Positions 11,192-51,151 of a DNA stretch of 64,000 bases are shown in pieces (the stretch's first letter is position 1; every line of letters starts with the position of its first letter). Made by a program: the position numbers and the translations under genes. The stretch comes from Octopus vulgaris. Lineage: Eukaryota. Where the stretch lies: positions 39,060,001-39,124,000 of the forward strand of contig OX597840.1 in assembly GCA_951406725.2 (NCBI GenBank), in the 5' to 3' direction. The notes under the pieces were generated by a model. It searched no databases, had not been told where the DNA came from, and worked only from the letters and a program-made list of their open reading frames with translations.

Positions 11192-11319
11192 TATGATGTC
11201 ATATAATCACAAACGAGCAGATTGGTGCATCGTAAGGTCAGATACTTAGCTTTACAGTTACCCGGATAGAGACACCATAAAAGCTCGTGATTGTGAGTGC
11301 GCCTGTAAAACTTAGAAAA

Positions 11320-16178: not shown

Positions 16179-17409
16179 ATATATACATATATATATAGGT
16201 ATGTCCATATATATCTGTATATATATATATCTGTATATATATATTTGCCCGCGCGCACATATGTGTGTGTGTGTGCCTCTATTTCAGTTTCCCATTGTCT
16301 GATTGTCTCTATCTCTCATTCGCTCTCATGTTCCCTTACCGCTAAACTACCCCACACATCTTTCCTATCTCTTTCATATCAAGACGTCCATACTTGTCTA
16401 TCTCAACCTCTCTCTCCTTCACTCTCTCATTCTCGTTCTCCTTCTCTCTCTCTCTCTCTCTCTCTCCTATTCATATTCTTGGCCCTCATATATGTGTGTA
16501 TGCATGTGTGTGCGTACGTATATATATACATATATTTCTATATCTCTCTGTCAATTTATTAAAATTCTCTCCCGATGTTATTTCATTATTGTTATAATAA
16601 ATTGTATAATAAACATCGTTTCTTTGTTTTCCATTCCTCCATTGTTTAATTAACTTCTTAAAATACAGAACTACTCTCAGACTGATAACACAGATAAAAT
16701 ATTGATAGAGTTTAAAAGAATATTAACACACTGCCACCGGAAGCATTGTTTCAATGATCGTCTTTGACTGCCAAAGAACACTGAAATCATATTCAAAGAA
16801 TTCAAAATAAGTCGTGAACGGTTTAATACAATCTTGTTAGACCAAACGCGATACTCACCAATTATATTACAAGATATTTAATGGGAGTCTAGAAATAATC
16901 CATCATAAAACTAGATTACGAAAGCAAACTATGGTCTCGAGAACAAAAAAATGAGAGACTTCTCATAAACAAAAAAATAATGAAATTTAGTTTAAATGTT
17001 AATAAAAGAAAATGTATTAATTATTCATTCGTGAATTGTTTTTGAAATTTTTTTTAATAAAATGTCTTCTAATAACTTGGAAAGTGCTTTAATCTATAGT
17101 TGTAAGGATTCCCTATATCTTCTCTGAAGATAATGAAATGTAGAATACTGATGTTCACGATTGCAAAGATCTAATGCTGGCCCGATAGACGAGGGCCCTT
17201 AAACACGGGGGTACTTTTGTTATACAGTAGAAGACGTGAATTCTGTTTTGAGAAAAGCCCTGCCCCAGGAGGATACATTAAGTGGCTTACCTAACACCAA
17301 GACAATATATTTGTACAAAACAGAACAACTTCAAAATGTGACCTCATGTGTACCGTTGGCGATCTTTTTTTCCTCTGTATTCCCTTCTCTGGATCTTTCC
17401 TTCTCCTAT

Positions 17410-23121: not shown

Positions 23122-23384
23122 AACAACAACAAAAAGATGAGGACAAATATCCGTCAAATGTAAATAACGTAAAAAATGAACATAATTCCTCATCTCTTAA
23201 ATATTTGCTTTTATCAGCTTTGACAGACCGTTTTGTAGTCACTGGAAAGTCCCAATGAATTAAATTTTCTTCCTCAGTTCCAGCGTCAGGATGGCACTTG
23301 TGCCATTTGTGCGCAGATTTGATTTTATAATGCCAGCATATAAAAGTATGGAAATATTTGGGCTACTCTCTCTCTCTCTTTTTA

Positions 23385-23596
23385 TCGTGTATTTGTTTCA
23401 GTCATTTGACTGCGGCCATGCTGGAGCACCGCTTTTTAGTCGAGCAAATCGACCCCGGGACCTATTCTTTGTAAGCCCAGTACTTATTCTATCGGTGTCT
23501 TTTGCCGAACCACTAAGTGACGGGGGACAAAAACCAGCATTGGTTGTCAAGCAATGCTAGGGGGGAAAATGCAGACACACAAACACACACGCACAA

Positions 23597-23650
<54 letters not shown>

Positions 23651-23812
23651 TACGACAGGCTTCTTTCAGTTTCCGTCTACCAAATCCACTCACAAGACAT
23701 TGGTCGGCCCGAGGCTATAGCAGAAGACACTTGCCCAAGATGCCACACTGCGAGACTGAACCCGGAACCATGTGGTTGGTAAGCAAGTTACTTACCACAC
23801 AGCCAATCCTGC
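23385..23812 (-). mobile_element. SINE family A, full length
   Basis: Colinear with 1024-1434. Confidence 0.88.
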
Positions 23813-24604: not shown

Positions 24605-24897
24605 TATTAGGGAGTAAATCCAAACTTACAGGGAAAAATTAGATTTAGGATTAAATCTAATTTTACAGTATAATATAAATTAAATTAGAGATAAAACCAC
24701 TCTTAGGCAAATCAAACAGTGAAAAACATAAACCAATACGTAGAAATAAAATTAGTTAATATAATATACAAAATATATAAAATATAAAATTTAATTTTGT
24801 ATATTATATTAATTATTTTTATTTCTATGTTTTTGGTTTATGTTTTTCACTGTTTGATTTGCCTAATAGTGGTTTTATCTCTAATTAAATTTATATA
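24605..24897. mobile_element. Asymmetric fold-back element in (TA)n
   Basis: Arms ~24672-24773 and ~24794-24897 (TAGGCAAATCAAACAGTGAAAAACATAAACCAA / TTGGTTTATGTTTTTCACTGTTTGATTTGCCTA); unpaired tail 24605-24670. Confidence 0.85.
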
Positions 24898-24908
24898 TAT
24901 ATAGATAC

Positions 24909-26786: not shown

Positions 26787-27094
26787 AAGGCGCCAAGACG
26801 GCGAAAATAACAACACGGTGGACTTGATGCTTAGCGGTATTTCGCCCGTCTTTATGTACCTTGTTTACATGCTTCCGAGGTCGACTTAGACACTCATCCT
26901 TTCGGTGTTGATAAGATTACTATCAATAAGGCGGCGAGCAGGCAGAATCGTTAGCACACCGGACGAAATGCTTACAAGTATTTCGTCCGCCGTTACGTTC
27001 TGAGTTCAGATTCCACTGAGGTCGACTTAGATACTCATCCTTTCGGTGTTGATAAGATAAGTATCAATAAGGCGGCGAGCTGGTAAAATCGTTA
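26787..27094 (+). mobile_element. Tandem 141-bp repeats of the SINE B 5' half (2 units plus start of a third)
   Basis: Units begin AAGGCG at 26787, 26928 and 27069; the first two end CCTTTCGGTGTTGATAAGATxxxTATCAAT. Confidence 0.85.
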
Positions 27095-27628
27095 GGCGCA
27101 GGTGTGACTGTGTGGTAAGTAGCTTGCTTACCAACCACATGGTTCCGGGTTCAGTCCCACTGCGTGGCATCTTGGGCAAGTGTCTTCTGCTATAGCCCCG
27201 GGCCGACCAATGCTTTGTGAGTGGATTTGGTAAACGGAAACTGAAAGAAGCCTGTCGTATATATGTATATATATATATATATGTATGTGTGTCTGTATAT
27301 GTTTGTTTGTCTGTGTTTGTTCCCCTAGCATTGTTTGACAACCGATGCTGGTGTGTTTATGTCCCCGTTACTTAGCGGTTCGGCCAAAGAACCGTTAGAA
27401 TAAGTACTGGGCTTGCAAAAAGAATAAGTCCCGGGGTCGAGTTGCCTGACTAAAAGCGGTGCTCCAGCATGACCACAGTCAAATGACTAAAACAAGTAAA
27501 AGAGTAAAAGAATAATGAGTAATCAAGAATAAAGATTAATCAAGAATAAAGAATAATCAAGAATAAAGAGTAATCAAGAATAAAGAGTAATCAAGAATAA
27601 AGGGTAAAAGAGTAAAGGGTAAAGAGTA
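27095..27628 (+). mobile_element. SINE family A inserted into a SINE B head, with expanded tail
   Basis: SINE B is split AATCGTTA|..|CACCGGGCGAAATG and resumes at 27629-27770; the tail contains ~5 copies of TAATCAAGAATAAAGAG-like units. Confidence 0.9.
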
Positions 27629-29632: not shown

Positions 29633-29770
<138 letters not shown>

Positions 29771-30300
29771 TACACGCACATATACGGGTGCAGAAAAATA
29801 TGTAAATCTACACATCTATATCTTTATATATCTTTCCATCTATCTAGAAATATATGTAGAGATGTGTCTATGCGTAAGCATGTGCTGGTGTGTATGTGTA
29901 TATGTATGAATGTATGTATGTGACCATTCCCTCTACATACATACATGCATACAAACAAACATATATTCTTGCATATACACGTACACACAAACACATACTT
30001 ACGCATACACATATCTATACGTATATTTCTAGATAGCTGGATAGATATATAAAGATGTAGATATAAGTGTAGACTTACATATAAATGAGTGTTTATGCAT
30101 GTATGTATGCATATATGTATGTCTGTCTGTCTCTATGTATGTATGCATGTATATATGTATGTATATTCACATGAATAAATGATGAATGCGACACACACGA
30201 CTGTTTGCCATTGTGTCACTCAGCAAATGATGATTATTACGGATAAATATATCCCCATTCTTTGCAGTTCAAATTCCCCTTTTGGATCACAAAAGCAATA

Positions 30301-31480: not shown

Positions 31481-32003
31481 ATATGTGCGCGTATGTGTTT
31501 CTCAGAATATGTATACGCGTGTGTGTACGTGTTTATTGAATATATATATCTATATGTATAAACATTTTTGTGTGATGTTTTACGGCACAAGATGCGAAAT
31601 ATGTTTACAGAAAAACAAGCGAGAAAATAACGTTGTTTTCAATTTCACAATCTACGCAAATATATAAAATAAAATAAAATAAAAAGAAAAACCATTATTT
31701 CGATAACAGTTGGACTCTAGCGAGAGGTATGTGGTTACTTTTCATTCATCGCTTGTCGTTCCATCATTAATGCATTATCTACATTGTTATGAACATACGA
31801 AGACAAAAACACATCAATGCCAACAACAACAACAACATCAGGTGCACCATCAACAACAAAAATAACACTTAGTTTACTGTTCCTGCTGATATTATATGTT
31901 TGCGCGTGTGCACGAGCCTGTGTGAGTGTATGTGCAATAATTAAATATCTTTATATATACATATATATAAACATATATGTATATATATATATATATATAT
32001 ACA

Positions 32004-32289
32004 AAAATAAGCAACAAGAATGAATCCGGTAATTTGGTGCAATTGTTTCATACTATAGACATTTTATTAAAAGCTGTAAATATTACAGCAGATTTAAGAT
32101 TTAAGATTTAAGATTTACAGCTTTTAATAAAATGTTGTAGTATGAAACAATTGTACTAAATTACCGGATTCATTCTTGTTGCTTATTTTTTATTATAATC
32201 ACCCCGGATATTTTTATGGGTAGCACCATACAAAATTCTGGTGCATCTAAATTAAGTACCATATACATTTGAATCTAAATTGTTGCTGA

Positions 32290-32295
<6 letters not shown>
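32004..32295. mobile_element. Asymmetric fold-back element in (TA)n
   Basis: Arms 32004-32082 and ~32113-32190; spacer contains (GATTTAA)x3; unpaired tail to 32295. Confidence 0.88.
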
Positions 32296-32339
<44 letters not shown>

Positions 32340-32421
32340 GGTCCCGGGTTGATTCGGAGTTAACCACAGTAAATAAGGTACTCAATACATGGCAGAGTAA
32401 ATTAATTTATTTTATAGAAGG

Positions 32422-32471
32422 AGCTTTACAGGACTAGAACTGTTTCATTCAAATGAAATCATCAGGAAGCT
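32422..32471 (-). ncRNA. Type I hammerhead ribozyme motif, mirror copy with a 1-nt deletion at the cleavage site/stem I junction
   Basis: Minus strand AGCTTC-CTGATGA-TTTCATTTGAAT-GAA-ACAG..CTGT-A-AAGCT. Confidence 0.75.
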
Positions 32472-32556
32472 TGGTGTCAGGAATAGTTTTGGCATTTATA
32501 CATTTAGGCAGATTATCTGCCTAAATGTATAAATGCCAAAACTATTCTTGACACCA

Positions 32557-32607
32557 AGCTTCCTGATGATTTCATTTGAATGAAACAGTTCTAGTCCTGT
32601 AGAAGCT
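32557..32607 (+). ncRNA. Complete type I hammerhead ribozyme motif
   Basis: Stem I AGCTTC/GAAGCT; CTGATGA 32563-69; stem II TTC/GAA with U.U closing; GAAA 32582-85; stem III ACAG/CTGT; predicted cleavage after GUA at 32601. Confidence 0.85.
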
Positions 32608-32611
32608 CCTT

Positions 32612-32661
<50 letters not shown>

Positions 32662-32669
32662 TACATTGT

Positions 32670-32937
32670 TCCGTCTTGAACATGCTCATCCTCTCCTCCT
32701 GTCTTCCAGTTTAATTCTCCTCGGTTGCTCCGTAAACAGTAAGGGAGCCCTTTTGCCGCTTCTTCCATCCACACTTCTCCCGTCCATCCTTATGTTGCTA
32801 TTCTCTGTCATTCCAATGGCTGTAAGCATCGCCCATACTGATCAGGGAGCCAAATGCCAACGGCCGAGTTCATCTGGGACAAGCACTGACTACGGCCCCT
32901 CCTCCCCGCCATCCTGCATAACGCCCTCGTACTCAGA
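32670..32937 (-). mobile_element. Decayed 3' end of an RLE-type (HERO-like) non-LTR retrotransposon
   Basis: Across stops and frameshifts: EYEGVMQDGGEEGP*SVLVPDELGRWHLAP*SVWAMLTAIGMT..MEEAAKGLPYCLRSNRGELNWKTGG, resembling the KY..L..C...GW....PVEVGCRGF..SVW.ML..LG..EAAE.AS.WLW C-terminal pattern. Confidence 0.6.
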
Positions 32938-33211
32938 GTATTTAATTGCACCTTTACATTGGAGCATACTTGCACACGCCTAGGAACGGATAAAAGATTT
33001 CAAAACTCCTATATAGCAAAATACTTTTCTACTGTAGGTATGCTGATGTGTTTACGTCCTCGTAACCTAGCGGTTCGGCAAAACAGACAGATAGAATAAG
33101 TACTAGGCTTACAAAGAATAAGTCCTGGGATCGATTTGCTCGAGTAAAGGCGGTGCTCCAGCATGGCCACTGTCAAATGACTGAAACAAATGAGTAAAAG
33201 AGTAAAAGAGT
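32938..33211 (+). repeat. Local direct duplication, copy 2, continuing into the SINE A tail
   Basis: Matches 29084-29315. Confidence 0.85.
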
Positions 33212-33733
33212 GCTTGTGTATGTGTGAACGTGTAGGTGTATGTGTGTCAGTGTGTGTGTGCGTGTGTGGGTGTGTGTATAAATAGTGTAAGCAAAATAAG
33301 GGTTCGTGGCATTCCTTTAAATGCTCAACATTTCCCCGCGGTTTCCTCCTTCCGGCGCCACCGGAAGGAGACCAATATTATCGTTGAAGGAGCGAAATTG
33401 CATTTGACCCTTTGGCTGATAATTCTCGAAAATTAATTTGCTTAGATATTATTTATTTTGTTATCATCCGGAATGACTATACTAAAACATGATAATAACA
33501 GAATTAATAATATAGGTAATCGCATAAATTATTTTGAATAGTTTTATTTTGCCAGGACAGAAACCGATTCAACTGAGTCCCTATACGTAAATGTACGTTG
33601 ATAGATTTTATTAACTTAATCTGCTTTCGTTTGATATCTGTAGTTACCATTAGTGTATTTTTAGCGATTTAAATAAGAGCTTTGACTGTTTATTTCCAGC
33701 AGCCAGACGTAATTAGTATGCCCTTTGATTAAT

Positions 33734-33793
<60 letters not shown>

Positions 33794-33798
33794 GCAGT

Positions 33799-34115
33799 GT
33801 GGAAGATGTTTATGAGCCACTTAAGAAACACACAAGACCGTTAGATTCACTTCAACATTTAAATTTAATTTGTCAAAATATTTTCGCCGCAAAATATTTT
33901 CGTGCTGCATGTATGCAGCACGAAGCTTTGTCAGTGAAGAGGTCGCGGTCTCAAAGCGACGAAAATATTTTGACAAATTTAATTTAAATGTTGAAGTGAA
34001 TTTAACGGTTTTTATGTGTTTCCTAAATAGCTTACAAACACCTTCAACGCTCCAATTATTTTCGTTCCAGCACACGATCTCAGATCAAGTCACTCTCTAT
34101 GCAAGTACATCTCCG
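33799..34115. mobile_element. Asymmetric fold-back element carrying an HHR, in (TA)n
   Basis: Arms 33799-33890 and 33956-34048; tail to 34115; (TA)n on both sides. Confidence 0.85.
33927..33977 (+). ncRNA. Minimal type I hammerhead motif with C3G core change
   Basis: TTTGTCA-GTGAAGA-G-GTCGC..GCGAC-GAA-AATATT-T-TGACAAA; perfect 7-bp stem I, 5-bp stem II, palindromic stem III. Confidence 0.75.
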
Positions 34116-34117
34116 TA

Positions 34118-34214
<97 letters not shown>

Positions 34215-35477
34215 CGAGAAGTTTCCACATAATTTACTTCTACTCACAAGCCATTTGTTGACCTGGGTATATAATAGAAGACCCTTACTGGAGATGCCGA
34301 GCAGCGGGCAGGATCCTCAAAGAGGGTAGCTGCAGAGATCCGTACCGCACGCTACCATATCATATATATATATATATAATATATATGATACTCACCTACA
34401 TATATTATACACACATACACGTGAGCGAGTGTGTGTGTGTAAGATTGTCATTTGTATATTGTCGTAGATATACACTTCATTGTAAATAATTGTAGTTAGA
34501 CTATTTCGAATTTGTTTGTCTCGTTATTTTCCAGGAGATACTCATGTATAATGAACTCCTCAGATCTGTTTTGTTCTTGCATTTTTGCCATGGCGTTGTG
34601 TTTGGAGAACCTAGTGTCACATAACTTTTGAGTTAATGTCTGTTCTTTGTCTCAATTCCATTTCAATCTTTCATTTCCAGGCTGACCAGGACACCTTTAT
34701 GACTCATTTACAGTCGTTTGCATTTTTTATGAGATATTCTACATAGACTAACAGCATTCACCGTTGGGATAAGAACATATATTTAGCGAATTTCCATTTC
34801 ATCAAGGCTTTTAAGCTCGCGAGAAAATATTCCTTTGTCACGGAGGAACAAGTTACGATAGAAAAGACATCCAGTGTTGAATTATTTAAACACGCTACTG
34901 GGGAAATATATTATAGAACGTGCGTCAAGAGAACATGGTTAATGAGGGAATTTCATATATCGTAATTTAGAACAAAAGATTTAATGAATTTAATGCAAAA
35001 TAGTATGCTGGTATTGATCGTTATTGAATTATTCATAGAAAAGGGGCGACTGTTGTACAACATGATTCATTTTAAATAATCGCATTCTAATTTTCCCTGA
35101 AGGATATTATATATTTCGCTGGTTAATGAGGAATTGAATTACAAATGTTAGATCTTGTTTTTCAATGACATAGAACAAGAGTTAAGATCGTTACAAATGT
35201 CGCATTATAAATCACCAGTTGAGGTTATTTTAAAATACACTGCATCTCGAGGGATATCTTTCCATCCATAAGTAAGAAGGAATTTATACTGAAATGGAAA
35301 TGCATGCAGTTGTTCAAAGACTTTTGTATATAGTCGCAGGCATGACTGTGGGATAAGAAGCTCGATTACCAACCGCGTACGTGAATTGACCCTTAGTCTG
35401 ATTGGGCAGCTAAAACCGTAAAGAGAGCAATGCATTCGAGTACATTTCATAGAAGGAAAAAAAAGTGTTTTATATGC

Positions 35478-35521
<44 letters not shown>

Positions 35522-35749
35522 GCTGCGATGGTATGTTGTTTTTGTTCATTCATATATATCTTGAGTTCGTTGCACTGAAGAACATAAAATGCAAATACTG
35601 CATTGATTGCGAAATCACAGGTGATATGTAACTAAATTCTGTTTTTAACTGACTCGCTTCGAAGATTGCATTCGGTACAATTTGTTTATTTTGGTAGTTT
35701 TGACTTTAAAAGTCCCTCCTAGCGTGCGGCATTTATGTGTAATAGTGCC

Positions 35750-35844
<95 letters not shown>

Positions 35845-35845
35845 C

Positions 35846-35877
<32 letters not shown>

Positions 35878-35951
35878 GTTTATATATATGTATATATGTA
35901 TGCATGTATTATATATATATATATATATATATATGATTATAATTATATATC

Positions 35952-36115
35952 AGGAGAGTTTACGAAGACAGGTGGTGTACAAAACAAACATATGTATTAG
36001 TATAATGCTCAGGAATAGAAAAAGTATTTTATGTTTCGAGCCTACACTCTTCTACAGAAAGGGACACAGAAAAAGCAAGGCGAGAAAAAAATGTGTGTAG
36101 TGGCTAACGATCTAT
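35952..36115 (-). mobile_element. CTGTAGA-HHR short element, diverged copy (HHR at 36026-36061)
   Basis: Colinear with 63785-63967; minus strand CTTT-CTGTAGA-A-GAGT GTAG GCTC-GAAACAT-A. Confidence 0.8.
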
Positions 36116-36152
36116 ATATGTATACATTTATATACATATATATATATATATA

Positions 36153-36448
36153 GTACGTTTATATATTTGTTGTGCAAGATTTTTTACATGAAGTTGTGTG
36201 TTGAAACAGATATTATTATATTTCGGAATGGTCATTTTGCCAGTTTAGCCAATAAAAACACACGCACTATATATTTGGTGTTGTTTTGCTTCAGTGTTAT
36301 TTATTTTTTACATTAAACTTAATCTTATTAATCTGACCGAAATAAGATTAAGATTAATGTAAAAAATAAATAACACTGAAACTAAATGACACCAAATATA
36401 TAGTGCGTGTGTTTTTATTGGCTAAACTGGCAAAAGGACCATTCCGAA

Positions 36449-36460
<12 letters not shown>
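36153..36460. mobile_element. Asymmetric fold-back element between microsatellites
   Basis: Arms 36211-36329 and ~36342-36460 (TGCCAGTTTAGCCAATAAAAACACACGCACTATATATTTGGTGT and its reverse complement); tail 36153-36210. Confidence 0.9.
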
Positions 36461-36517
<57 letters not shown>

Positions 36518-37384
36518 AAAAGTATATATGTGAAGTATTATTAAAAACAGTAATAATGATGTGATGGTGTGGCTAGCAGGACTTCTACCTAAACAGGTAC
36601 AATATAAAAATCCCACCAATTCTACAATAAGTACACACACGAGTAATGTAATGAATATTTTAAAAACTTGGCCTGACGAAAACTTGTGTGCGTTTCTAAC
36701 TTTAAACGTGATGGTGAATGGATTTGAAGCGGTCCGGAAGAAAGAGCAATAACTTCTGAAATGTGCATATACACTCATTCCTTAATTTTATATTTTTGAT
36801 CGCATTGTTTAGATAGACGTATTCGTAAAAGAAACGTCGTAACATTCAGTGCTGGCTCTAATATCTATAGGAAATCTGTAGAGGTAACTTTTAAGGTATT
36901 CCTTAAATGAGTTAGGTGAGGCTTGATGGAAATGTAACCTTTATTTCCGGGATGGCAAAATATAGCCGGGTTATCTCCAATTATTTGATGTTCGTAGAGT
37001 AACTCGGCCTACCTGTGTTTCAATCGGTAAAAATCTCTAAATCATTTTACATCACATAACTTGAATACAATAATTAGAACTTATATTTGTCTAACGCTGT
37101 GAGAAAGTTTCGCTGCTGCTACAGATGTCAGGCTAATTATCTTTCTATTGATCTGCAATTCCAACACACGATTCAATACAGCGGTTAGACTATATACGAT
37201 ATGATACGATACATACAAACATACATGCATTTATCCACACACACACATATACAGGCACACTCACACACGCACACACATGTATATATTTATATATATATAT
37301 ATAAGATATATATAGATGTGTGTATGTATATGCATACATATATATATATATACATATATAGATAGATTGATATATAGATAGATA

Positions 37385-37437
<53 letters not shown>

Positions 37438-37819
37438 GGGATAAAATTCGACAGGAATAAATTGGTAAATGTTTTTCATCTCTAAATTTATTCCTGTCGA
37501 ATTTTATCCCCAATTTTTGTGGTTATAGACCTAGCTGTTCTTTCTAGCGTTTAGAATCCCTATAAGTGGATTTCTTATGTGTTTAAATATACAGTATCTC
37601 GTCTGACTAATATATAGTCTTTTTGACTAAATTTTTTTTACACCTTAGACCACTGGAAATGTAAATTTTAATTATTTTCCATTTCTCTTTGCTATGATTA
37701 AATATATATATGCATATATATCTATATAAATATGAGAGGGATGTTGTGTGTGTGTGTGTGTGTGTGTGGTTCTGTGTGTGTGTCTGTGTATGTGTATGTG
37801 TATGTGTGTGTCTGTGTGT

Positions 37820-37876
<57 letters not shown>

Positions 37877-37957
37877 TGTCTGTAAATATCAGCGAGTTTG
37901 TTGCTGGAAAATAACATATAAAATTTTGCGAAAGGAATGAGTTTTCATTACTAGCTG

Positions 37958-38017
37958 GTGATTATCACACACTGAAGACGCGTAACTGCCCAGAAATCCC
38001 GGGTCTGTGTGTATCAC
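37958..38017 (+). ncRNA. Type I hammerhead motif with decayed stem II
   Basis: GTGAT..CACACA-CTGAAGA-CGCGTAACTGCCCA-GAA-ATCCCGGGT-C-TGTGTG..ATCAC; GUC cleavage triplet ending at 38005; stem I of 6+5 bp. Confidence 0.65.
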
Positions 38018-38229
38018 GTAAGGCTAGCGATGACAACGATGATTTTCCCCTTGCAAATACTAATCGTTAACCAGCTGAAGGCGATGCCTTCCTTGGGCTA
38101 AACACAACAGTAGCATCGTGCTCTATGTGACCGCCACATATAGTTGGCAAATATATTTACGATATATGGTGGTGGTTGTTTACTCCTTATGGAGAGTTTC
38201 ACCACATCCAGTACCTACACCTTATCATC

Positions 38230-38420
38230 ATCATTTCATCTGATGTGCCTTTGTAAACCAGACAATGTTCTGAAAAGACGGCCACGTAGTTTGCACCTAC
38301 GATTTGGACCACCAAGAGCTGCAGATTAGCCTGTCCTTTGTAGATTTTAAAATGTCTTCTGAGGCCTCCGTTGGATTTGCAAACCTTCAACATACACTGC
38401 ATTCAAAGGTGTGCACAGAT
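38230..38420 (-). pseudogene. Two decayed C2H2-like zinc fingers, probably the C-terminus of an RTE-clade LINE
   Basis: Frameshifted FECSVC/KVCKSNGGLRRHFKIY and RCKLRGRLFRTLSGLQRHIR*. Confidence 0.5.
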
Positions 38421-38931
38421 ATATAGGCAGAATCGTTGGTGGAGATCCCTTTATCCAAAAAAGGAAAGATATATAAGGGAGTGAGAGGAATGAGGTATTT
38501 AATGCCCTTTGACGGACAGTATTCAATAGGGCTGTTACGGACCTTGTAGGGCATAACTACTCAACGGTCTACATCAACAATCTCCTAACATCTCCGGTGG
38601 TCTATACAGATACGACGCTCTGTTCGCAGTTCAAAATTGTAGCAACCGGAAAATCGAAAACACGTGAGAAATATTAAGAACTTTTTTGAAAAAAAAACGC
38701 CTGCCTTAGAATCTCCTTCTGTAACCACATTAAAACATACCCTACAACTCTCGTCGCCTACCGTAAAATATAGAAAGCAACATTTTTTTTAGTTTATCAT
38801 ACTTTGATATGAAAAAAATACACAAACATTCATCTCAATAAACCATTCTTGTCCCTGAAAGCTATATTTTATATTTGCTATGGCTGGTTTGAAGCTAACT
38901 TTCTTTCTACACCTCGATTCCTGGATCTTTT

Positions 38932-38995
<64 letters not shown>

Positions 38996-39024
38996 GTGTG
39001 TGTGTGTGTATATGTATATATGTA

Positions 39025-39071
<47 letters not shown>

Positions 39072-39091
39072 ATATATATATGTATGTATAT

Positions 39092-39155
<64 letters not shown>

Positions 39156-39221
39156 GAGCGCACGGCTTATATATTTTTATGTGAGCTTGCATTTGTCTGC
39201 ATACGTTTTTTGCGTATAAGC

Positions 39222-39253
<32 letters not shown>

Positions 39254-39256
39254 ATA

Positions 39257-39287
<31 letters not shown>

Positions 39288-39517
39288 GCAAGTGTGTGCA
39301 TTGTCTTTGCGTCTGTGTTCATGTACGAGAAACTATATGCTTACATAAATATTTCATAATGTACCACTACGTGGATACGTATATAGCTTCAAATATTTAT
39401 ATTCAAGAATATAAAAACATGGAAAACTTCTAAAATATTAAAAAAAAAAACATTCTTAGTGTAATTATATATAGTTATATGTACTATATTATATATAGTC
39501 ATATGAACATTTGCATG

Positions 39518-39562
<45 letters not shown>

Positions 39563-39952
39563 ATACAAATTTATGCTTGCATACATATGTGTGTGTACGT
39601 GTTTGTATTTGTCCGTATGTATAGCTTACCCTGTGAAAAACACATATCACGTGATATCTTTGTTTTCGAAACGTGTTTGCGCATTTTTTTTCAGTGAAAA
39701 AACTAGCATTACCCATTCTTTGAGCTTCCATATCCATAATGAAATTGTTAAAAACACAAGAAACAGAAATTTATAGGAAAGCCAGCGCCATAAAAAAATT
39801 ATTACGTATTTATAAATATCATATATTCTCTCATTCTCGCAGCACATTTTCTCGTTAATATCTGCACCATGTATCTGGATGTGGATTTATGGTGGAAGTT
39901 TTACGCAGCATTGTTCGCACTTCGAATTTTCCTATAGATAATGTATATGCAT

Positions 39953-39993
<41 letters not shown>

Positions 39994-40240
39994 TATACGT
40001 GTGTGTGTGTATATATGTATTTATATATATACATATATATACATATTTATATATATATATACATGTATGTGTAGATGGATGTAGATAGATATATTTATAT
40101 ATATATGTATACATATATATACATATATATCGACACAAAGATAGGTGTTTGTGTATGTATAGAACATACTATTTACACATTTACTGACGCTTACATATTC
40201 TGATATCAGATGTGTTAAAAGACAAACATTCTACAATGAT

Positions 40241-40315
<75 letters not shown>

Positions 40316-40534
40316 AAATGTAAACTCACATACTTATATATATACATATATGGGGTGGAGTGTATGTATACACACATACAGTCATATATATCATCATGCC
40401 TAAAATTTCATATGTTCATAGCATATCTACGCATACACGCGTGCATGCAAACGAGAATACTTGCCGTCATATATGCCATCTTATACACACACACACATAT
40501 ATATATATGCTTATATATATGCATATATATATAC

Positions 40535-40566
<32 letters not shown>

Positions 40567-40884
40567 GTGTATATATATGTATATAGATGTATATATATGT
40601 ATATATATAATATATAGAGAGAGACACACACACACTCACACTTATATGTGTGTGTGTGTGTGTTGCATATGTGTGAGTGCATATGTGTATCTAGCAATAT
40701 GCATTCTAAGTGTTCGAGTACCTGCACATACTTTTATGCATATTAGTGTCATAGTTTTTAAAGTAATCTCGATGTGTGCGTCGATATTTTTGGTTATAAA
40801 ATGCGATATCGCAATACGATACGCACATATATACATATATATATATATACATACGTACACATATATGATATATATATATATATA

Positions 40885-40954
<70 letters not shown>

Positions 40955-41183
40955 GACACACACACAAATGGATATTTTTATTGAAGCATCTATGTCTATT
41001 CAGTCACTTACAGAAAATATATTCTAAAGTAAAATCTCCAGTTTTATTCTGGAGAAACTTCAAAGCAAAGACAAGATAATCGTTTTTAATGTGGTGGAAG
41101 TCATCGACTCCAGTATTTCACTGGTATTTCAGTTTGGTAAAACCATAACCATGTATGCCTATGTATCTATTTTATCTACCCAT

Positions 41184-41287
<104 letters not shown>

Positions 41288-41369
41288 ATATATATATATA
41301 TATATATATCTGTCTGTCTATCTTTAAATCGAAGGCTGTGACAGATTTCAGAATATTTATAAAGAAAAG

Positions 41370-41417
41370 GTCTTACATCTGTTTTCGGGATATTTTACAT
41401 ATTCCTTCATCGGGGAC
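41370..41417 (-). ncRNA. Decayed type I hammerhead motif with CCGATGA core
   Basis: Minus strand GTCC-CCGATGA-A-GGAATAT GTAAA ATATCCC-GAAA-ACAGATGT-A-AGAC; within a ~200-nt island between microsatellites. Confidence 0.55.
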
Positions 41418-41525
41418 GGCGTTAGAAAATGGTTAAGCAATAGTTATTCTAGATAAGATATGAATTAGAGAGTGACGTGGAGGAATGAAAACTGACGTGA
41501 GATATGCAGGGATATTGTATCTTCT

Positions 41526-41559
<34 letters not shown>

Positions 41560-41929
41560 TGTGTGTGTGCGTGTGTGTGTATGTATGAATTATGTTCTTC
41601 ACTAAATTTCCCATCGACCATGATTTTTAATGTCATTATAGTTTACATGCTCCAGTGTTTGTGTGTGTATTTATATTTTTTCACGTCAGCGTTTTTTTTT
41701 TTTTTACTTTTAACTCCCTTCTCCAAATTCTTATATATCGCCTCGCCATGTGTCTCAAGTCAGATATTGAATCTGTATGCAATAAAGTGTTCGCCTGGAG
41801 ATCTATTGCCTTTAGGAATCCAAATGCACGTGGAATATAAAATGGATTAAGCAGACAACTGCCATTGGTGAATCGCATGCAAGAGCTTAAGATTTCTACC
41901 TGTGAAGAACTGCCTTTTTGACAATGTAC

Positions 41930-42054
<125 letters not shown>

Positions 42055-42294
42055 TATACATACATAGAATGAAAGAAAGAGAGAGAGAGAGAGAGAGGAG
42101 ATGGGTGCAAAAGTAGGTATAATCATGAAAAAGAAAGACGTGCAATAGTCATTCACTTTTTTATCAGAAAATTAAAATTTACAATAAAAGTATTATTATA
42201 GTAATGATAAATGTATCATTATGATTAATAACACTGAAAATATAAAAATATGTGGCAACATGATTTAACGTGTTAATAAGGATATTCGTGTGAC

Positions 42295-42565
42295 GGCGTG
42301 TGGCTTAGTGGTTAGGGCATTCGGCTCATGATCGTAAGGTTGTGAGTTCGATTCCCGGCGACGCGTTGTGTCCTTGAGCAAGACACTTTATTTCACGTTG
42401 CTCCAGTCCACTCAGCTGGCAAAAATGAGTTGTACTTGTATTTCAAAGGGTCAGCCTTGTCACTCTCTGTGTCACGCTGATTATCCCCAAGAACTACGTT
42501 AAGGGTACACGTGTCTGTGGAATGCTCAGCCATTTGCACGATAATTTCACGAGCAAGCTGTTCCG
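42295..42565 (+). mobile_element. tRNA-headed CORE-type SINE sharing body Y with family C
   Basis: TGGCTTAGTGG A box, GAGTTCGATTCCC B box, GTGTCCTTGAGCAAGACACTT core; 3' part matches 17897-18030. Confidence 0.8.
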
Positions 42566-42572
42566 GCTACCG

Positions 42573-42785
42573 AGAAGGGGCTAAAAACAGTGGGGACAAA
42601 CAAGGACAAACAAACGGACTAAATCGACTATGTCAACCTCAGTGCGTAGCTGGTACTTATTTCATCGACCCCGAAAGGATGAAAGGCAAAGTCGACCTCG
42701 GAGGAATTTTAACTCAGAACGTAGCAGCAGACTAAATACCGCTAGGCATTTCGTCTGGCGTGCTAAAGTTTATATAAGGTCGCCA
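42573..42785 (-). mobile_element. SINE family B
   Basis: Reverse-complement match to 15941-16178. Confidence 0.82.
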
Positions 42786-42829
42786 TCTATTTACAGGCCT
42801 CCCTCCCTACCTATCAATCAATGTATATC

Positions 42830-43101
42830 CTGAGAACCCCTTCGGTCATAACTGACCATGGATTTGCACCTAGAAATTACCCTCTCAGACCCAAGTATGG
42901 AGAAGTTTGTTAATGAAAGACCAGCAGTTGCCCATGCATACCCGCCTCTCATCTCCACGCCACCAGTCTTATCCAAGGAAAGAGCAAAAGCCGATAGAAC
43001 TTGTCACCAGTGACGTCGCAACTCATTTCTACAGGTGAGTGAATTGTAGCCACTTGAAACGAAGTGTCTTGCTCAAGGATACAACACGCATCCCTGTCCG
43101 G
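42830..43101 (-). mobile_element. Decayed CORE-type SINE with a different body
   Basis: AAGTGTCTTGCTCAAGGATACAACACG is the reverse complement of the core seen at ~42365-42390. Confidence 0.6.
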
Positions 43102-43639
43102 CACCTTCCAGATGTATAGTCAAATTAAATACACACGCTCCACCCCCACCTAGATCGTAATCGCCAGTCCAACGGTAACAACTTCGATTCACAATCACCA
43201 ATACTCCACCTAGAGGATATAGCAATTTTTGACCAGGAGCCAAAACTGTTTTTAAAGTAGCGGTATAAACTTTTGTCTAATAGAAAAGCGAAGATAATTT
43301 ATATCAATCCTCGTTGCGTAAATTCACATTTTCTTGAGATTTTAATTAGTTTATTGCTTACATTTCAATTATTTCTTGGGATGGATTCTTGGATATTCCT
43401 GTTCCAAGAGTAATTGAGTTGGTTGCATCGACCATGCAAACACGCACGCACGCAGAAACGTCAGCTAATTCATGTTATTGGCATCCTCACGTTATTAAGC
43501 AATTTTGTCTCATATTAACCTCCAATTATTAATGTCACGATAAGCAAAGGTATTCAACCTCTGCTGAAGTTAAAGAAATTTACAAAGCGTAGCTAAATAT
43601 TATATCTTTTTATCTTCTGCCCTTTATTTCTACCTGCCA

Positions 43640-43902
43640 TTTTAATGTGGCCATGGTGGGCTCCCGCATTCAAGAATCTTTAGTCGACGGAATCGACCCA
43701 GGACATATTTTTTAAGCCTTGTAGTTTTTCCTAGAGCTCTGTTTCGCTGAATTTCTAAGTTACGTGGACGTAAGCACACCTATACCAGTTGTGATGTGTT
43801 GGTTTTTGTGGAGGGGACTAACACAGACACAAATACAACGTTTTGGTCGGCGCGAAGCTATAGTATAAGATATTTGCCCAAGGTGCCACGCAGTGGGATT
43901 GA
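43640..43902 (-). mobile_element. Decayed SINE family A
   Basis: TTTGCCCAAGGTGCCACGCAGTGGGATTGAA and other colinear blocks. Confidence 0.65.
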
Positions 43903-43910
43903 ATAGAAAA

Positions 43911-44310
43911 CCTATTTCTTGTGGGTACAAGGCGTTAAACACAGAGGGGACAAACAAGGACAGACAAATGAATTAAGTCGATTATATCGACCCCAGTACG
44001 TAACTTGTACTTATTTAATCGACCCCAAGAGGATGAAAGGAATTTGAACTCAGATCGTTACGGCAGACGAAATACCTATTTCTTTACTACCTACAAGGGG
44101 CTAAACACAGAGGGAACAAACAAAGACAGATAAACGGATTAAGTCGATTACATCGGACCCAGTGCGTAAGTGGTACTTATTTAATCGACCCCGAAAGGAT
44201 GAAAGGCAAGGTCGACCTCGGTGGAATTTGAACTCAGAACGTATCGGCAGACGAAATACGGCTACGCATTTCACCCGGCGTGCTAACGTTTCTGCAAGCT
44301 CACCGACTTT
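43911..44310 (-). mobile_element. SINE family B head-to-tail dimer
   Basis: Junction GACGAAATAC|CTATTTCTTT at 44075/44076, identical to 13964/13965. Confidence 0.88.
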
Positions 44311-45129
44311 ATTGAATACAGATCCTTGAAGTTGAGAAGCAAACTTTTTATCAGAGCCACATGTGCGACAGGTGAGCTACGAAATACAGAAAAGCTTTAA
44401 AAAATTTTTGAAAAGATCTCATCTCTAGTCGTGATTTCATCTTTGAAAGAGCCTTGTAACTTCAGGTTCGTTTACCTTAGATTCGTTACAAATATATATT
44501 TCCCCAGTGAGACATAAAGGAGTTCCTTCCATATTTGAGCAGAAGTCGACATTATAAATGTTGGCTCCAGCAGAAAATACTCCCAGAACGTCTGTTGTAT
44601 TGCACATTATCCATTCACAGTGGAATAGAATCCACTTTAATCACACCTTTAAAAGCGGAATTCGGAAGGCTTTACTCCCATCAAACATTTAATTTCTTTA
44701 TCATTGACAAATATACATGCCTGTGCATAAAGCAAAATGCAAAAAAACAAAATGACCCTGAGTGTATACATGTAGCAGTGTGCATGTGAGAGAGTGTATA
44801 TATGAATGTGTGAGTGTCTGTGTGTCTGTGAGTCCTTTTTTATGCATATCTCATTGTATGTGTTTTTATATTTCGCGATGCGACATATTTATGTCTTTTT
44901 ATTTATTTATTTAGTTTTGCAGAATGAAAGCCGATCGTCAAATGTGTGACAACTCTTTCTTGAAACCAAACCATCTGTTGCGATTTGTAAACCAGAGATT
45001 GTAGAGCGTGGCATGGTGTGTACAAATGTATAGGTATACGTATGGCTAAATTTGCAACAAGACAATGGAAGACTATGCCAGAGTTTTGCAAAAGTATGTT
45101 TTACTAATGCTGTTATGTATGCGTTCGCA

Positions 45130-45372
45130 TGTGATCGACGTTATAGATAGGCTCCGCATAGGAACCTCACATGGAGATGACCAGGAATGTTTCATAACTG
45201 TTCAGTCTACTACATATCCAGTGAACACACACATACACACACACACACACAAACATACACACACGTGTTTGTGTGTGTGATGGATTTGTGGTAGACTGAA
45301 CATTTATGAAACATTCGTAGGATTCTCCATGTGAGATTCCTATGCGGAGCGCATCCGTCACGTCCACCACAT
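45130..45372. repeat. Diverged fold-back with a (CA)n/(TG)n centre
   Basis: GCTCCGCATAGGAA..CTCACATGGAGA..GAATGTTTCATAA..TGTTCAGTCTAC mirrored at 45290-45350. Confidence 0.82.
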
Positions 45373-45436
45373 GGCACAACTCCTCTCATTCAAATAAGTT
45401 TAAGTGAAACTTTGCTGAAATTCATTTCATTGTCCA

Positions 45437-45552
45437 TACCTATTTCTTTATTGCCCACAAAGGGACTAAACATAGAGGGGACGAACAAGGACAGGCATAG
45501 GTATTAAGTCGATTACATCGACCCCACTGCGTAAATGGTACTTAATTTATCC
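45437..45552 (-). mobile_element. SINE family B 3' fragment
   Basis: CCTATTTCTTTATTGCCCACAA..GTCGATTACATCGACCCC. Confidence 0.8.
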
Positions 45553-45711
45553 ACGGTAAAGTTGATCTCCACCGAATTCAACTTTAATTTTCATTCTTCC
45601 AGGATCGGTAAAATATGTAACTATAAAACACGGGATTAATGTAACTGACCAGTCTCTCCTACAAAGTTTCTATCATTTTGATTATAGGAGAAAGAATTAT
45701 CATCATTCTGA

Positions 45712-45772
<61 letters not shown>

Positions 45773-45777
45773 TTTTA

Positions 45778-45836
<59 letters not shown>

Positions 45837-45907
45837 GTTAATATTATTATTAGTATTATAATATTTATTATTATTATTTTTATTATTATTATTATTTTTA
45901 TTATTAC

Positions 45908-45938
<31 letters not shown>

Positions 45939-45965
45939 GTTACAATTATTATTATTATTATTATT

Positions 45966-46229
<264 letters not shown>

Positions 46230-46278
46230 ATTATTATTATTATTATTATTATTATATTCATTATTATTATTATTATTA

Positions 46279-46345
<67 letters not shown>

Positions 46346-46350
46346 TCTTA

Positions 46351-46403
<53 letters not shown>

Positions 46404-46481
46404 GTTAATATTATTATTAGTATTATAATTTTTATTATTATTATTTTTATTATTATTATTATTTTTATTATTACTATTATT

Positions 46482-46534
<53 letters not shown>

Positions 46535-46638
46535 CATCATCATCATCATCATCATCATCCTTATTATTATCATCATTATTGTTATTGTTACAATTATTAT
46601 TATTATTATTATTATCATCATCATCATCATCATCATCA

Positions 46639-46690
<52 letters not shown>

Positions 46691-46694
<4 letters not shown>

Positions 46695-46826
46695 TATTAT
46701 TATTTTTATAGCGTGCTTTCACTTCACTACCGAGCGCAGCTCTGTGTGCCTTGGGTATGTGCTGTGATTTGTTGTGATGCTCTGATGGTTATTGTATGGA
46801 AAGTGTTCTGCGTAGGATGTGTGCAG
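46691..46826 (-). mobile_element. Extreme 3' end of an R4/Dong-like retrotransposon in (TAA)n, copy 2
   Basis: Nearly identical to 46094-46229. Confidence 0.7.
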
Positions 46827-46851
46827 ATTATTATTATTATTATTATTATTA

Positions 46852-46939
<88 letters not shown>

Positions 46940-49925
46940 CATTATTATTATTATTATTATTATCCGATGTTACCTGCGGCTAAATATGCGTATTTAATAT
47001 TAAGTGCCTTCCCAGTTACATATGCAAAATATGTAAGGAATAAATAAAGAATATGAGTTGATTGTAACTGTCCAAGGAAATATATTTCGAACGCAAGTTT
47101 GAATGATAAGAGGTTAGATATTAACTTCATTAAAACTAAGTGGATGTGGATACAAGTGATATTTATGGTCTTTCGGTTTCGAATCTATCGGCTAATTATC
47201 GATTACGGACGCAGGAAATTTTTCGCTTCTATTACTAGATAACATGTCGCTTTGGAATTCGATTGTAGACACAGATCAACTAATTTGAACTAATTGGTCA
47301 AAATGGAAGTAATAAAGATCTCAGATGAACTGATAGAGAAGCAAATAAAAATCACCGAATTATTACTATTTATGGAGAAATCGACCCTAAAATTTTAAAA
47401 TCTGGTTTGCTAAAAGGATCTCGGAATGTTATAATTAAGTGATCCCCAGGCAAGATCTCAACGGAGTTCAGTCATAAAATATAACAATAAAATTTATATG
47501 CGTCTACTTAAATTATAGCTCTAACCGAAAGCAAGAACTATATAACATTATGGAGCATCAGATTAAATTTGTCTGAGATTTAACGTAGGCGCCCCCGGAA
47601 TTATAAATTCGCCGTGGAGTTGCATTTATACGCAGTATTAAATCAACTTTGTTTATGCCATGGTGGACAGAACATTTATAAACGTAAAAGGAAAACAAAA
47701 GATTAAAAGATAAATATATCACCATAAACATTGATGTTTACTATTCATCAAGTACACATCACAAATTCGAAAATATAATGTGTGGTCTGCAATAACGTGC
47801 GGATTTTTTTTTTAAGTGTATAGTCGCAGCTGTCGGCATAGGAAGCGGTATTTTTGATTCAAAAGTCATTTGACAGCAGCATCCATGAATAATTCTTTTG
47901 TTATTTTGATTCAACGCCAGCAATTTTAAGGGAAAAGCAAATTCGATTACATCGCCTCCAGCGCAAAGCAGGTGCTTATTTTAACTGTTTTATCGATCCG
48001 GAGAGGAATAATGGCAAAGTCAACGTCGGTTCATGTAAAGCCAAAGAATATGGTACTGGAAGAAATGATGTTGCCCATCTTCCAGCGAATTCTGCCCACT
48101 ATCCGCCTTCGCATGTGTTAATAGCGATTTCAAATTTTGGTACAAAGCCAGCAATTTCAGAGGTTTCAATGACCCCAGTGTTGAACTGGTACTTATTTAT
48201 ATTATTATCGACCCCGAAAGGATGAAAGGTAAATCGACCCCGAATCAATCTGAAAGGAGAACGTAAAGTTGGACAAAATAATTAGCATAATTATTTTGCC
48301 TAAATATGCTCTCCTCCTTAACACGCGTTGATATTTCAGCACAGTTTATTCCGCTGAGGTTGACTTAGCCTTTGGTTAAATCCTAGTAATACTACTGCCC
48401 GTAAAGACCAATGTCTGGCATAACTCAGGTGAACCACACAAACGCATGTGTTCTGGTACCTTGTATTCTTTGCGACCCTGTATGATTACGAAAACCTACA
48501 AAAGAAGAACTAACAAGCGCCATTACATTGTCTGCTCTACTATATTCAATAACAATGTAAAAACGCTGATAATTCTGTCATCGCACATCCTGCGGATGGC
48601 TGACAAAATGACGGCGAAGATCCAGACATCTACATCGTGTCCCTCACTTCAAAATGACCATTGTCGCTAGGATAACATATACAAGTACGTGTTTCAATTA
48701 ACCGATAAAAGCATAAATATATTCGATTTGAATCCATTAATTATTCTATCTCTCTTCGCAAGATTGATATTGTGGACTGCTCTTGCAGCGCACTAAACTA
48801 TAAATCACTGCAATATATATATATATATATAAATATATATATACAGAGAGAAAGAGAGAAAGAGAGAGACAGAGAGGTGAGAGTGATAATGAGGGGGAGG
48901 ACTGAGAGGGAGAGATATCATCGCAAATATCTGGTTACTGTGTTATTCAGAGTACATTATATTCTTCTCACCTTCCAGGATTCTCTGAGATTCTTCCTTA
49001 GTCTCTCTCCCTCTCTCCCTGTCTCACCCTTTCTCTTTATCTTTATATATTTGTGTCTATGAATATATGTGCGTATGTTTTTAGATATGTATGAAGCTAT
49101 GTGTATGCGTCTGTTTACGTGTGTCTCTGCTACATGTGATATTCCCGAATTCAGCATCTAATACATTAAGTCACTTTGTAAATTGAAGGTGAGATCCTTG
49201 TTTTTGTAATTGTATACTTGACGCTTTGGACAGAAAACCTTATCTGTAATAGCTTCCTTCTACAGAACATCCAACGCACACTCAGTGCGTTATTATCTCG
49301 TACAGAATTCCTTGAGTCATCACTAGAAGAATTTCTTTTATCTCATTGTTATTCTATCGTTCTATCGAAGACTTCTTACTTTCTATCCAACCACTCCATC
49401 ATTTCAGACTGATTTCTCTGTCCAGAATAATGTTGTGCGTCCTTATCCGTTCTAGCTTTGTTATAGGCAATCATCTCACACAGATCGAACAATCTGTGAT
49501 GCAGATGGCATCGTATCATAGAAAATACTTTATCTGTCCATTACAGATCGTATTACAGTGTGACGGAGGATAGAATCGGTAGAGCATCGGCAAAAATGTG
49601 AACAATCCTTAGTTACTCTACCTACCGATTTCACATCCTGTCTTGCTCTTAAACACTGTCTTTTGATTAAATAAATACAAAAACGTTTTCAGTGTTCGAT
49701 CTGGTACTGCGCAGTAATTTCGACCAAGTGAACTCTACTATAATTTCATGTTGGCCAATGGCTTGTAAATAAGCTTCCTGTTATATATATATATATAACA
49801 TTATATAACCTCTCATCTATACATGCTGTAAGTATGTATATATATATATATAAAAGGTGTTAATATTTCAACTAGTAGTAAAAAGTACTCGATCAACTAA
49901 GAGACCTGTGCTGTCCGGCACTAGT

Positions 49926-50019: not shown

Positions 50020-50234
50020 CACAAAATTCAAAGGACTGACCACTAAAAGTGGACGGTCAATATGCTAGATATAGCAATTTTGACGTCTATATTTAGCATA
50101 TTGACCGCCCACTTTTAGTGGTCAGTCCTTTAAATTTTGTATGTAAAAAATATTTCAATCTTCGGATTTTTATAATATGCTAGGCCACTGGTTTTAATTG
50201 ATTAATATCAATTTCTACCCTATATTATATTATG

Positions 50235-50288: not shown

Positions 50289-50748
50289 TTATGTATGTAT
50301 TAGTATATATATATATATATATATACACAGAGAAAAAAACACAGAAAGAAGGAGAAAAAAAATATATATATACATACATATATATATACATGCATACATG
50401 CATACATGCATACGTACATATACATAAATAAATGATCACTGGACACATAGTAAATCATTAACATCTCGTTTACGTCTTCTTGACATCGAACTATTGCAGT
50501 GTGGTTATCTCCCTTGTGTTCTACTTCTTGTCTTCTTCTTTACAAGCGTCTCATGTTTAATTGTTATCTGCTCAAAAAACACCTGACAAAAGGTGTTTTT
50601 TGGTGTTTCATCCTTGGTGTATTTTCATCAGTAAACCGTGGGCAGCTGTAATTCCAAAATTTTTGGTTTTTAATTTAAAATTATCTTTACTTCCTTAACT
50701 GATCAAGTGCTTTTCTACTAGTTGAAATATTACCACATTTTAGATATA

Positions 50749-51151
50749 TTACTCTTTTACTCTTTTACTTGTTTCAGTCACTTGACTGCGGCCATGCTGG
50801 AGCACCGCTTTAATCGAACAACTCGACCCCGGGACTTATTCTTTTGTAAGCTCAGTACTTATTCTATCGGTCTCTTTTGCCGAACCGCTAGGTAACGGAG
50901 ACATAAACACACCAGCATCGGTTGTCAAGCAATGCTAGGGGGACAGCCACACAAACACACACACATACATATAAATATATATATACATATATACGACAGG
51001 CTTCTTTCAGTTTCCGTCTACCAAATCCACTCACAAGGCATTGGTCGGCCCGGGGCTATAGCAGAAGACACTTGCCCAAGATGCCACGCAGTGGGACTGA
51101 ACCCGTAACCATGTGGTTCGTTAGCAAGCTACTTACCACACAGCCACTCCT
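50749..51151 (-). mobile_element. SINE family A, full length
   Basis: Colinear with 1024-1434. Confidence 0.9.

Follow-up and report, generated by a model that had tools for sequence, protein, structure and literature searches.

Insertions of EN+ Penelope-like elements (PLEs) are recognized by an adjacent inverted, 5'-truncated copy, a one-sided tail, and targeting of (TA)n (PMC8557442, File S1). The inverted junctions of Penelope carry palindromes, which have been read as a trace of self-priming, and microhomology deletions occur as well (PMC3846280). For the one PLE protein that has been purified, cutting and extension of the two target strands have been described, with two RT start sites bounding the tail (PMC11167929). 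The minimal type I hammerheads of metazoan PLEs (Cervera and de la Pena 2014, PMC4209133) share with the motif described here the type I topology, an unpaired nucleotide after A9, the G10.1-C11.1 pair, a palindromic stem III (AUAU in the Drosophila rows), the common U17, and the occurrence as dispersed single motifs or opposite-strand pairs. The rows of Fig. S3 of that paper that were compared display C3-G8, U3-A8, or U3-G8 and no G3-C8, whereas the family described here is G3-C8. Watson-Crick covariation of positions 3 and 8 is the common feature of this family, of the natural core variants—described as U3-A8 (Perreault et al. 2011, PMC3088659; PMC4209133)—and of the engineered rescues. In a PLE hammerhead, cleavage is lost with either C3G or G8C alone and returns in part when the two are combined (PMC11167929); an engineered C3G/G8C rescue is also given in PMC8495972. 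In the passages compared, G3-C8 appears only as a laboratory double mutant, whereas in the present high-copy animal repeat it predominates. Non-LTR retrozymes are likewise short, noncoding, and hammerhead-bearing and are thought to derive from PLE pLTRs (bioRxiv 10.64898/2026.07.22.740005; PMC7229834). They form tandem arrays with a hammerhead per unit, whereas the present locus is an inverted pair with one complete motif.

The locus at 33788-34116 of the window—the whole 64,000-nucleotide stretch analyzed—is a fold-back with (TA)n on both flanks and long arms at 33788-33890 and 33956-34059 (Table 1). Most likely, it represents two head-to-head copies of a repeat of about 205 nt, set in (TA)n and derived from a PLE 3' end in one RT event, with a hammerhead that would be able to cut in its G3-C8 family form and is predicted to be dead in this copy (G3/G8). 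The long arms align over 104 columns, 89 identical and 15 different (85.6% identity). At 7 of the 15 differences, the left arm has the family-majority letter and the right arm departs from the family. Departures hence occur on both arms, which argues that the arms decayed independently and that the hairpin is old and genomic. The region 33780-34070 folds with z = -16.3, a stability that none of 200 shuffles reaches. No listed piece of the DNA contig sets X1, X4, and X9 or of the RNA run X22 spans 33891-34122, so that the exact locus is unseen in these independent reads; one X4 record extends into 33899-33906.

Table 1. Features of the fold-back locus and of its surroundings (window positions).
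Feature	Position	Strand	Remark
Left (TA)n microsatellite, likely target	33738..33789	.	
Long inverted arm, copy of 33956-34059, without tail	33788..33890	-	
Second, short inverted copy of 33959-33972 (16-nt-period duplication)	33889..33903	-	
Innermost inverted piece, copy of 33913-33924	33899..33910	-	three-piece model
True fold-back apex, 2-nt loop of perfect 12-bp hairpin	33911..33912	.	
Direct copy of high-copy repeat unit, about 205 nt	33913..34116	+	contigs/RNA reads aligned
Minimal type I hammerhead motif	33927..33977	+	7-bp stem I, 5-bp stem II, extra nucleotide 9.1, stem III a palindrome; cleavage predicted 3' of U33970
Core box; positions 3 and 8 are G and G here, G and C in the family (GTGAACA)	33934..33940	+	
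57-nt tail, right arm only	34060..34116	+	arm alignment
Right (TA)n microsatellite	34117..34149	.	
Further fold-backs	629-962, 24669-24901, 29712-30166, 32003-32190, 36211-36459, 37434-37515, 45128-45373, 50021-50140		
SINE-like family, ~430 bp	1024-1436, 10773-11193, 12390-12791, 23377-23812, 27093-27521, 33016-33211, 50748-51151		
Second repeat family, about 240 bp	e.g. 13966-14198, 15941-16179		

The fold-back itself looks like an ordinary footprint of a Penelope-like insertion. Here and in other copies, the unit is accompanied by an inverted, 5'-truncated neighbor whose junction is palindromic, and a tail is found at one end only. Head-to-head arms, junction palindrome, one-end tail, and partial tandems elsewhere are thus common to this repeat and to EN+ PLE insertions (PMC8557442, PMC3846280, PMC11167929). 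The partial head-to-tail tandems run from 34115 to 33954 (X1, X4) and from 34114 to 34011 (X4) in other copies, with none at this locus. The likely (TA)n target would be that of the Hydra, Neptune, and Naiad PLE clades (PMC8557442), and a microsatellite on both sides of the insert makes any TSD unreadable. Unlike EN+ PLE insertions, the locus features a long tail (57 nt against the published 30-40 nt) and a seemingly fixed 5' end near 33913; the seemingly sharp start of the family at that position speaks against a variable 5' truncation. No ORF for a PLE RT/GIY-YIG protein is evident by eye among the ORFs of at least 100 aa in 31500-47500. The repeat is unlike, by eye, the listed hammerhead of Hydra-1_Obim and the 3' ends of Naiad_Obim and Naiad_Ovul in PMC8557442, and 12-15-mers of the family are absent from the supplement of that paper. 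The literature searched holds no description of this repeat family. The repeat hence behaves like a PLE end without being a proven member of the group, and its unit probably corresponds to a PLE 3' end or pLTR.

The spacer between the long arms is a mosaic. On the minus strand, the left side consists of three pieces of the right arm, namely 33913-33924, 33964-33972, and 33957-34059, and this three-piece model reproduces the inner left arm (33899-33910 region) exactly. The first piece is joined to the second via ACGAA (33920-33924/33959-33963), a 5-nt microhomology that may have been shorter ancestrally because many family members differ at 33922-33926. The join skips 39 nt and thereby removes the 5' strand of stem I, the core, and most of stem II. 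A re-copy of 16 nt follows, in which the switch back uses a 1-nt microhomology (G33972/G33956), and a 14-nt direct repeat is found with 16-nt spacing at 33873/33889. The original prediction had pointed to the spacer repeat and to a further perfect 12-bp hairpin, and both are present, the latter as 33899-33910/33913-33924. It had also located the end of the left arm correctly: position 33890 faces 33956, the first base of the stem II 3' strand, and the innermost 5 nt contain one mismatch, opposite 33959. As an inversion point, 33890 is rejected. The sequence 33913-33926 belongs to the family, which makes the 12-bp hairpin with its loop at 33911-33912 the real apex; the strand reversal thus lies at the apparent 5' boundary of the family and not, as had been claimed, at stem II.

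The right arm carries the minimal hammerhead at 33927-33977 as originally described, with the 7-bp stem I, the GTCGC/GCGAC stem II, the AATATT palindrome, and the GTGAAGA box all in place. Stem I is formed by 33927-33933/33971-33977 and stem II, which includes the G10.1-C11.1 pair, by 33942-33946/33956-33960. The core GTGAAGA (33934-33940) is followed by an extra unpaired G at 33941 (position 9.1)—a G at this locus, whereas the consensus of PMC4209133 has H. GAAA occupies 33961-33964, the palindrome 33964-33969, and H17 is U at 33970. The positions U4, G5, A6, and A9, the GAAA, the A15.1-U16.1 pair, H17, the unpaired 9.1, and the palindromic stem III all agree with the canonical motif. The literal CUGANGA box is found neither in this copy (GTGAAGA) nor in the family (GTGAACA), and a Watson-Crick pair between positions 3 and 8 exists in the family (G3-C8) but not in this copy (G3, G8). 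In isolation, the 51-nt motif folds into stems I and II with z = -2.6, and 1 of 200 shuffles is as stable. A descriptor with positions 3, 7, and 8 free has its sole match in the window at 33927-33977; with stems of the same length, it matches none of 60 shuffled windows, and with looser stems, the mean is 0.017 matches. Over the whole window, no Rfam model, those of hammerheads included, passes the gathering threshold. At E up to 10, Rfam returns 10 matches in 33780-34130, none of them a hammerhead; they are hairpin-driven miRNA and chance matches.

The family was aligned on 33891-34122 at 80% likeness in X1, X4, X9, and X22, with 8945, 11,868, and 5021 contigs and 1517 RNA reads, respectively. 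The three contig sets stem from organisms A, C, and E, and the RNA run from organism E. Part of the stretch is present in 20 of 24 runs, and none of the runs contains more than 45% of the sampled words; the family counts use 4 of the 24, and the insect-metagenome runs X19 and X20 (share 0.07) were left out. From these numbers, in which contig depth is abundance-weighted and not a copy count, we infer a high-copy repeat with thousands of copies. Family sequence reaches 5' of stem I to about 33913, beyond which the flanks are heterogeneous and AT-rich (agreement 0.42-0.47), and it ends at 34118-34119, again followed by heterogeneous flanks. The unit is therefore about 205 nt long with the hammerhead near its 5' end. 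The 5' boundary near 33913 is sharp, and the letters ahead of it tend to close with AG; a splice acceptor or the 5' end of an RNA might lie there. Scans of further collections for family members gave none with 24-mers in metagenome_contigs and genome_contigs and none with 19-mers in genome_contigs and viral_contigs. With 15-mers, 120 loci were obtained in metagenome_contigs, all of them chance (best alignment 22 nt), and with 18-mers, viral contigs gave 2 loci with matches of 18-19 nt only. Neither a second full motif or unit nor a further family copy was found in the 64-kb window (one complete hammerhead, one unit).

The family differs from this copy at position 8 of the core. C is found at 33939 in 94.4% (X1), 97.2% (X4), and 97.4% (X9) of contig depth and in 426 of 466 RNA reads (X22). 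This is also the only G>C place at the 3% threshold in each run, which leaves no C3 class reaching 3%. Among the best 40 of 129 variant rows, position 33934 (core position 3) does not appear, and the canonical positions of the core feature no majority change in the family; given this scope of 40 rows, position 3 may have a rare G>A variant or, in X9 and X22, a rare G>T one. Since C8 is the majority and G3 is kept, the core of the family is GTGAACA with G3 paired to C8, and the lesion of this copy is C8G. The consensus thus departs from the CTGAAGA that had been expected, with C8 in 91-97% of depth and G3 retained. The original prediction that a C3G change makes this copy probably inactive holds in its outcome and fails in its cause: G3 faces G8, and this copy, lacking a 3-8 pair, is probably inactive as judged by its sequence, whereas C3G is rejected as the lesion because the family keeps G3 and reads C at position 8. 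Folding cannot separate G8 from C8, as both variants give -13.8 kcal/mol. As sequence, the family-wide G3-C8 core is well supported; as a catalyst, it is a candidate. The A>G and T>C places number 52 of 118 in the RNA of X22 versus 12 of 46 in the DNA of X9, which carries the same species label (Fisher p = 0.049; examples are 34004 and 34025). This excess is possibly A-to-I editing of fold-back transcripts, in a comparison in which individuals differ and the RNA samples only some copies.

Several observations bear on whether the hammerhead works. In X22, RNA read ends do not pile up at the predicted cut site. Within the whole 204-nt unit of this decayed copy, stem I is predicted with P = 0.07 and stem II with P = 0.09. 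The predicted homodimer is devoid of a palindrome helix, the palindrome duplex amounting to -0.2 kcal/mol, and a transcript that runs across the two arms is predicted to sequester the motif fully, with P(stem I) = 0. PLE hammerheads have been suggested to be possible parasites (PMC8557442). We put forward only tentatively, and with more doubt than belief, that this high-copy family, found under at least three species labels, depends on a functional hammerhead whose naturally inverted G3-C8 pair escapes every CUGANGA search, with stem II as a preferred slip place of the RT. If true, there would be selection on ribozyme function in Penelope-like elements, some families reported without hammerheads might hide swapped cores, and standard descriptors would undercount animal hammerheads. 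The pair in question positions the general acid; two compensating changes there, in an otherwise intact core, would be a natural argument for catalytic selection, and G3-C8 would be a little-known natural variant if the family motif cuts. G3-C8 is absent from the File S2 list of PMC8557442, and none of 8 of the 30 GTGAACA matches in the supplement stands in a hammerhead context. In the literature covered, only engineered uses of G3-C8 were found. The natural family-wide G3-C8 core is possibly unreported. The largest survey of such variants, that of Lunse, Weinberg and Breaker from 2017, reportedly comprises about 150,000 PLE-associated hammerheads, and it or its supplements may already list G3-C8.

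In a reading along the lines of the original prediction, these elements would invert recurrently at stem II, with snap-back guided by the fold of the ribozyme. The two switch points inside the left arm do lie at the ends of the stem II 3' strand (33956; 33959-33963), which fits polymerase slippage at that hairpin in this single case. In addition, the arms of two further fold-backs, 56782-56933 (73-bp perfect stem, 6-nt loop) and 8447-8603 (39-nt spacer), start just 5' of a hammerhead-like 3' half. Set against this are the reversal at 33911-33912 and the joints of other copies: 15 of 27 were examined, 5 of these join opposite strands (33913/34055, 33915/34055, 33917/33965, 33927/34073, and 33934/33986), and none of the 5 uses 33956. 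One copy, represented by 87 RNA reads, has its turn at 33922, before stem I begins, and its inverted arm includes sequence 5' of stem I. The apex of 32405-32624 lies 49 nt upstream of the core, and 32003-32190 turns at least 31 nt upstream of its GAAA. A relaxed scan for full hammerheads matches 2 of 15 window fold-backs chosen by eye (the present locus and 32405-32624), and a loose test for the 3' half is unspecific, matching 10 of 12 fold-backs. The arms end at a putative stem II in three of the five most plausible fold-backs (8447, 33788, and 56782, not 32003 and 32405), a post hoc count across different families, and a weak cross-family tendency of arms to end at stem II may exist. For this family, an inversion point fixed at stem II is refuted, and a ribozyme-directed snap-back at stem II is unlikely; the spacer mosaic with its two switches at stem II fits the repeated template switching that had been proposed at the ribozyme. 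The skip and the duplication in the spacer might also have arisen after insertion, through replication slippage or microhomology-mediated repair of an unstable palindrome rather than through RT. Loss of central symmetry stabilizes palindromes, which counts in favor of such an origin, and palindrome repair usually removes the center. The 5-nt microhomology at the skip would agree with it, as would the microhomology-mediated deletions in Penelope copies that have been ascribed to DNA repair (PMC3846280). The perfect 12-bp apex survives, contrary to the usual loss of the center, and the coincidence of both switch points with stem II is a second point against repair, which leaves a post-insertion origin possible but rather improbable.

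The family motif could, furthermore, be a catalytically dead relic or a structural signal, with G3-C8 being coincidental and amplified from one master copy. Hammerhead-dead mutants of PAc insert unimpaired in vitro (PMC11167929), cleavage ends are not seen in the RNA of X22, the motif folds weakly in its context, and one master lineage is a single evolutionary event, whatever its copy number. The remaining core positions, G10.1-C11.1, both stems, and the palindrome are, on the other hand, all canonical, and G3 with C8 is exactly the pair of changes known to rescue activity; A>G at 33973, the most frequent change seen in stem I, would leave a U-G pair. A dead motif is, on this balance, a serious possibility, if not the favored one. 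Three further readings, a DNA transposon of the MITE or fold-back kind, a non-LTR retrozyme, and an assembly chimera, are considered highly improbable. The inverted arms are TA-flanked, the window contains several other palindromes, and no listed contig spans the locus, all of which would suit one or the other of these. The family, however, behaves as a linear unit: its flanks are heterogeneous on either side, and its inverted partners vary. In place of the fixed terminal inverted repeats of a MITE, it features a one-sided tail and partners that start at five different place combinations, and the window lacks a tandem array with a hammerhead per unit as in non-LTR retrozymes. An assembly chimera is rejected since the arms are 14% apart (15 of 104 columns) with changes on both, unlike a read chimera.

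The Penelope-like insertion, which remains the preferred reading, might have proceeded as follows. A PLE RT/endonuclease, acting in cis or in trans, would nick (TA)n, and copying of the RNA would begin at the tail and finish at the 5' end, 33913. Self-priming at the 12-bp hairpin would then yield the second arm, or else a new priming event on the opposite target strand would, beginning at a tail-less start near 34059. During synthesis of this arm, two slips of the polymerase at stem II would produce the re-copy of 16 nt and the skip of 39 nt, and both arms would then decay independently. Selection would have preserved the G3-C8 pair in the master element, given that either change alone abolishes cleavage and both together partly restore it, and the ribozyme would work as a dimer via the AATATT palindrome. 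A cluster of joints at 34051-34074 (10 of the 15 examined) was considered as a second RT start and dropped, as mismatches of this copy at 34046-34058 can shift alignment breaks there.

The window has a GC content of 25-41% per 2 kb, abounds in microsatellites and interspersed repeats, and has the appearance of animal genomic DNA. The fold-back at 32405-32624 has a 33-bp perfect inner stem with a 1-nt loop and ends in (TA)n. It carries a hammerhead similar to that of the Hydra clade, with CTGATGA, a U-U at the base of stem II, and a 4-bp stem III; the motif is complete on the right arm at 32563, and its core recurs on the left arm, where stem I is shorter. The fold-back at 56782-56933 is a young perfect palindrome whose arms start 4 nt before the hammerhead-like 3' half, which matches the Hydra-type pattern in File S2 of PMC8557442. 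Its apex may be stem II itself; the rival reading is a TA-flanked MITE. The old fold-back at 8447-8603 has both arms starting at ACGCT, just 5' of a Hydra-like hammerhead 3' half. The SINE-like repeat of 430 bp presumably resembles an octopus SINE. At least eight further unrelated fold-backs, several of them ending in (TA)n, lie within the 64 kb, which is an unusually high density.
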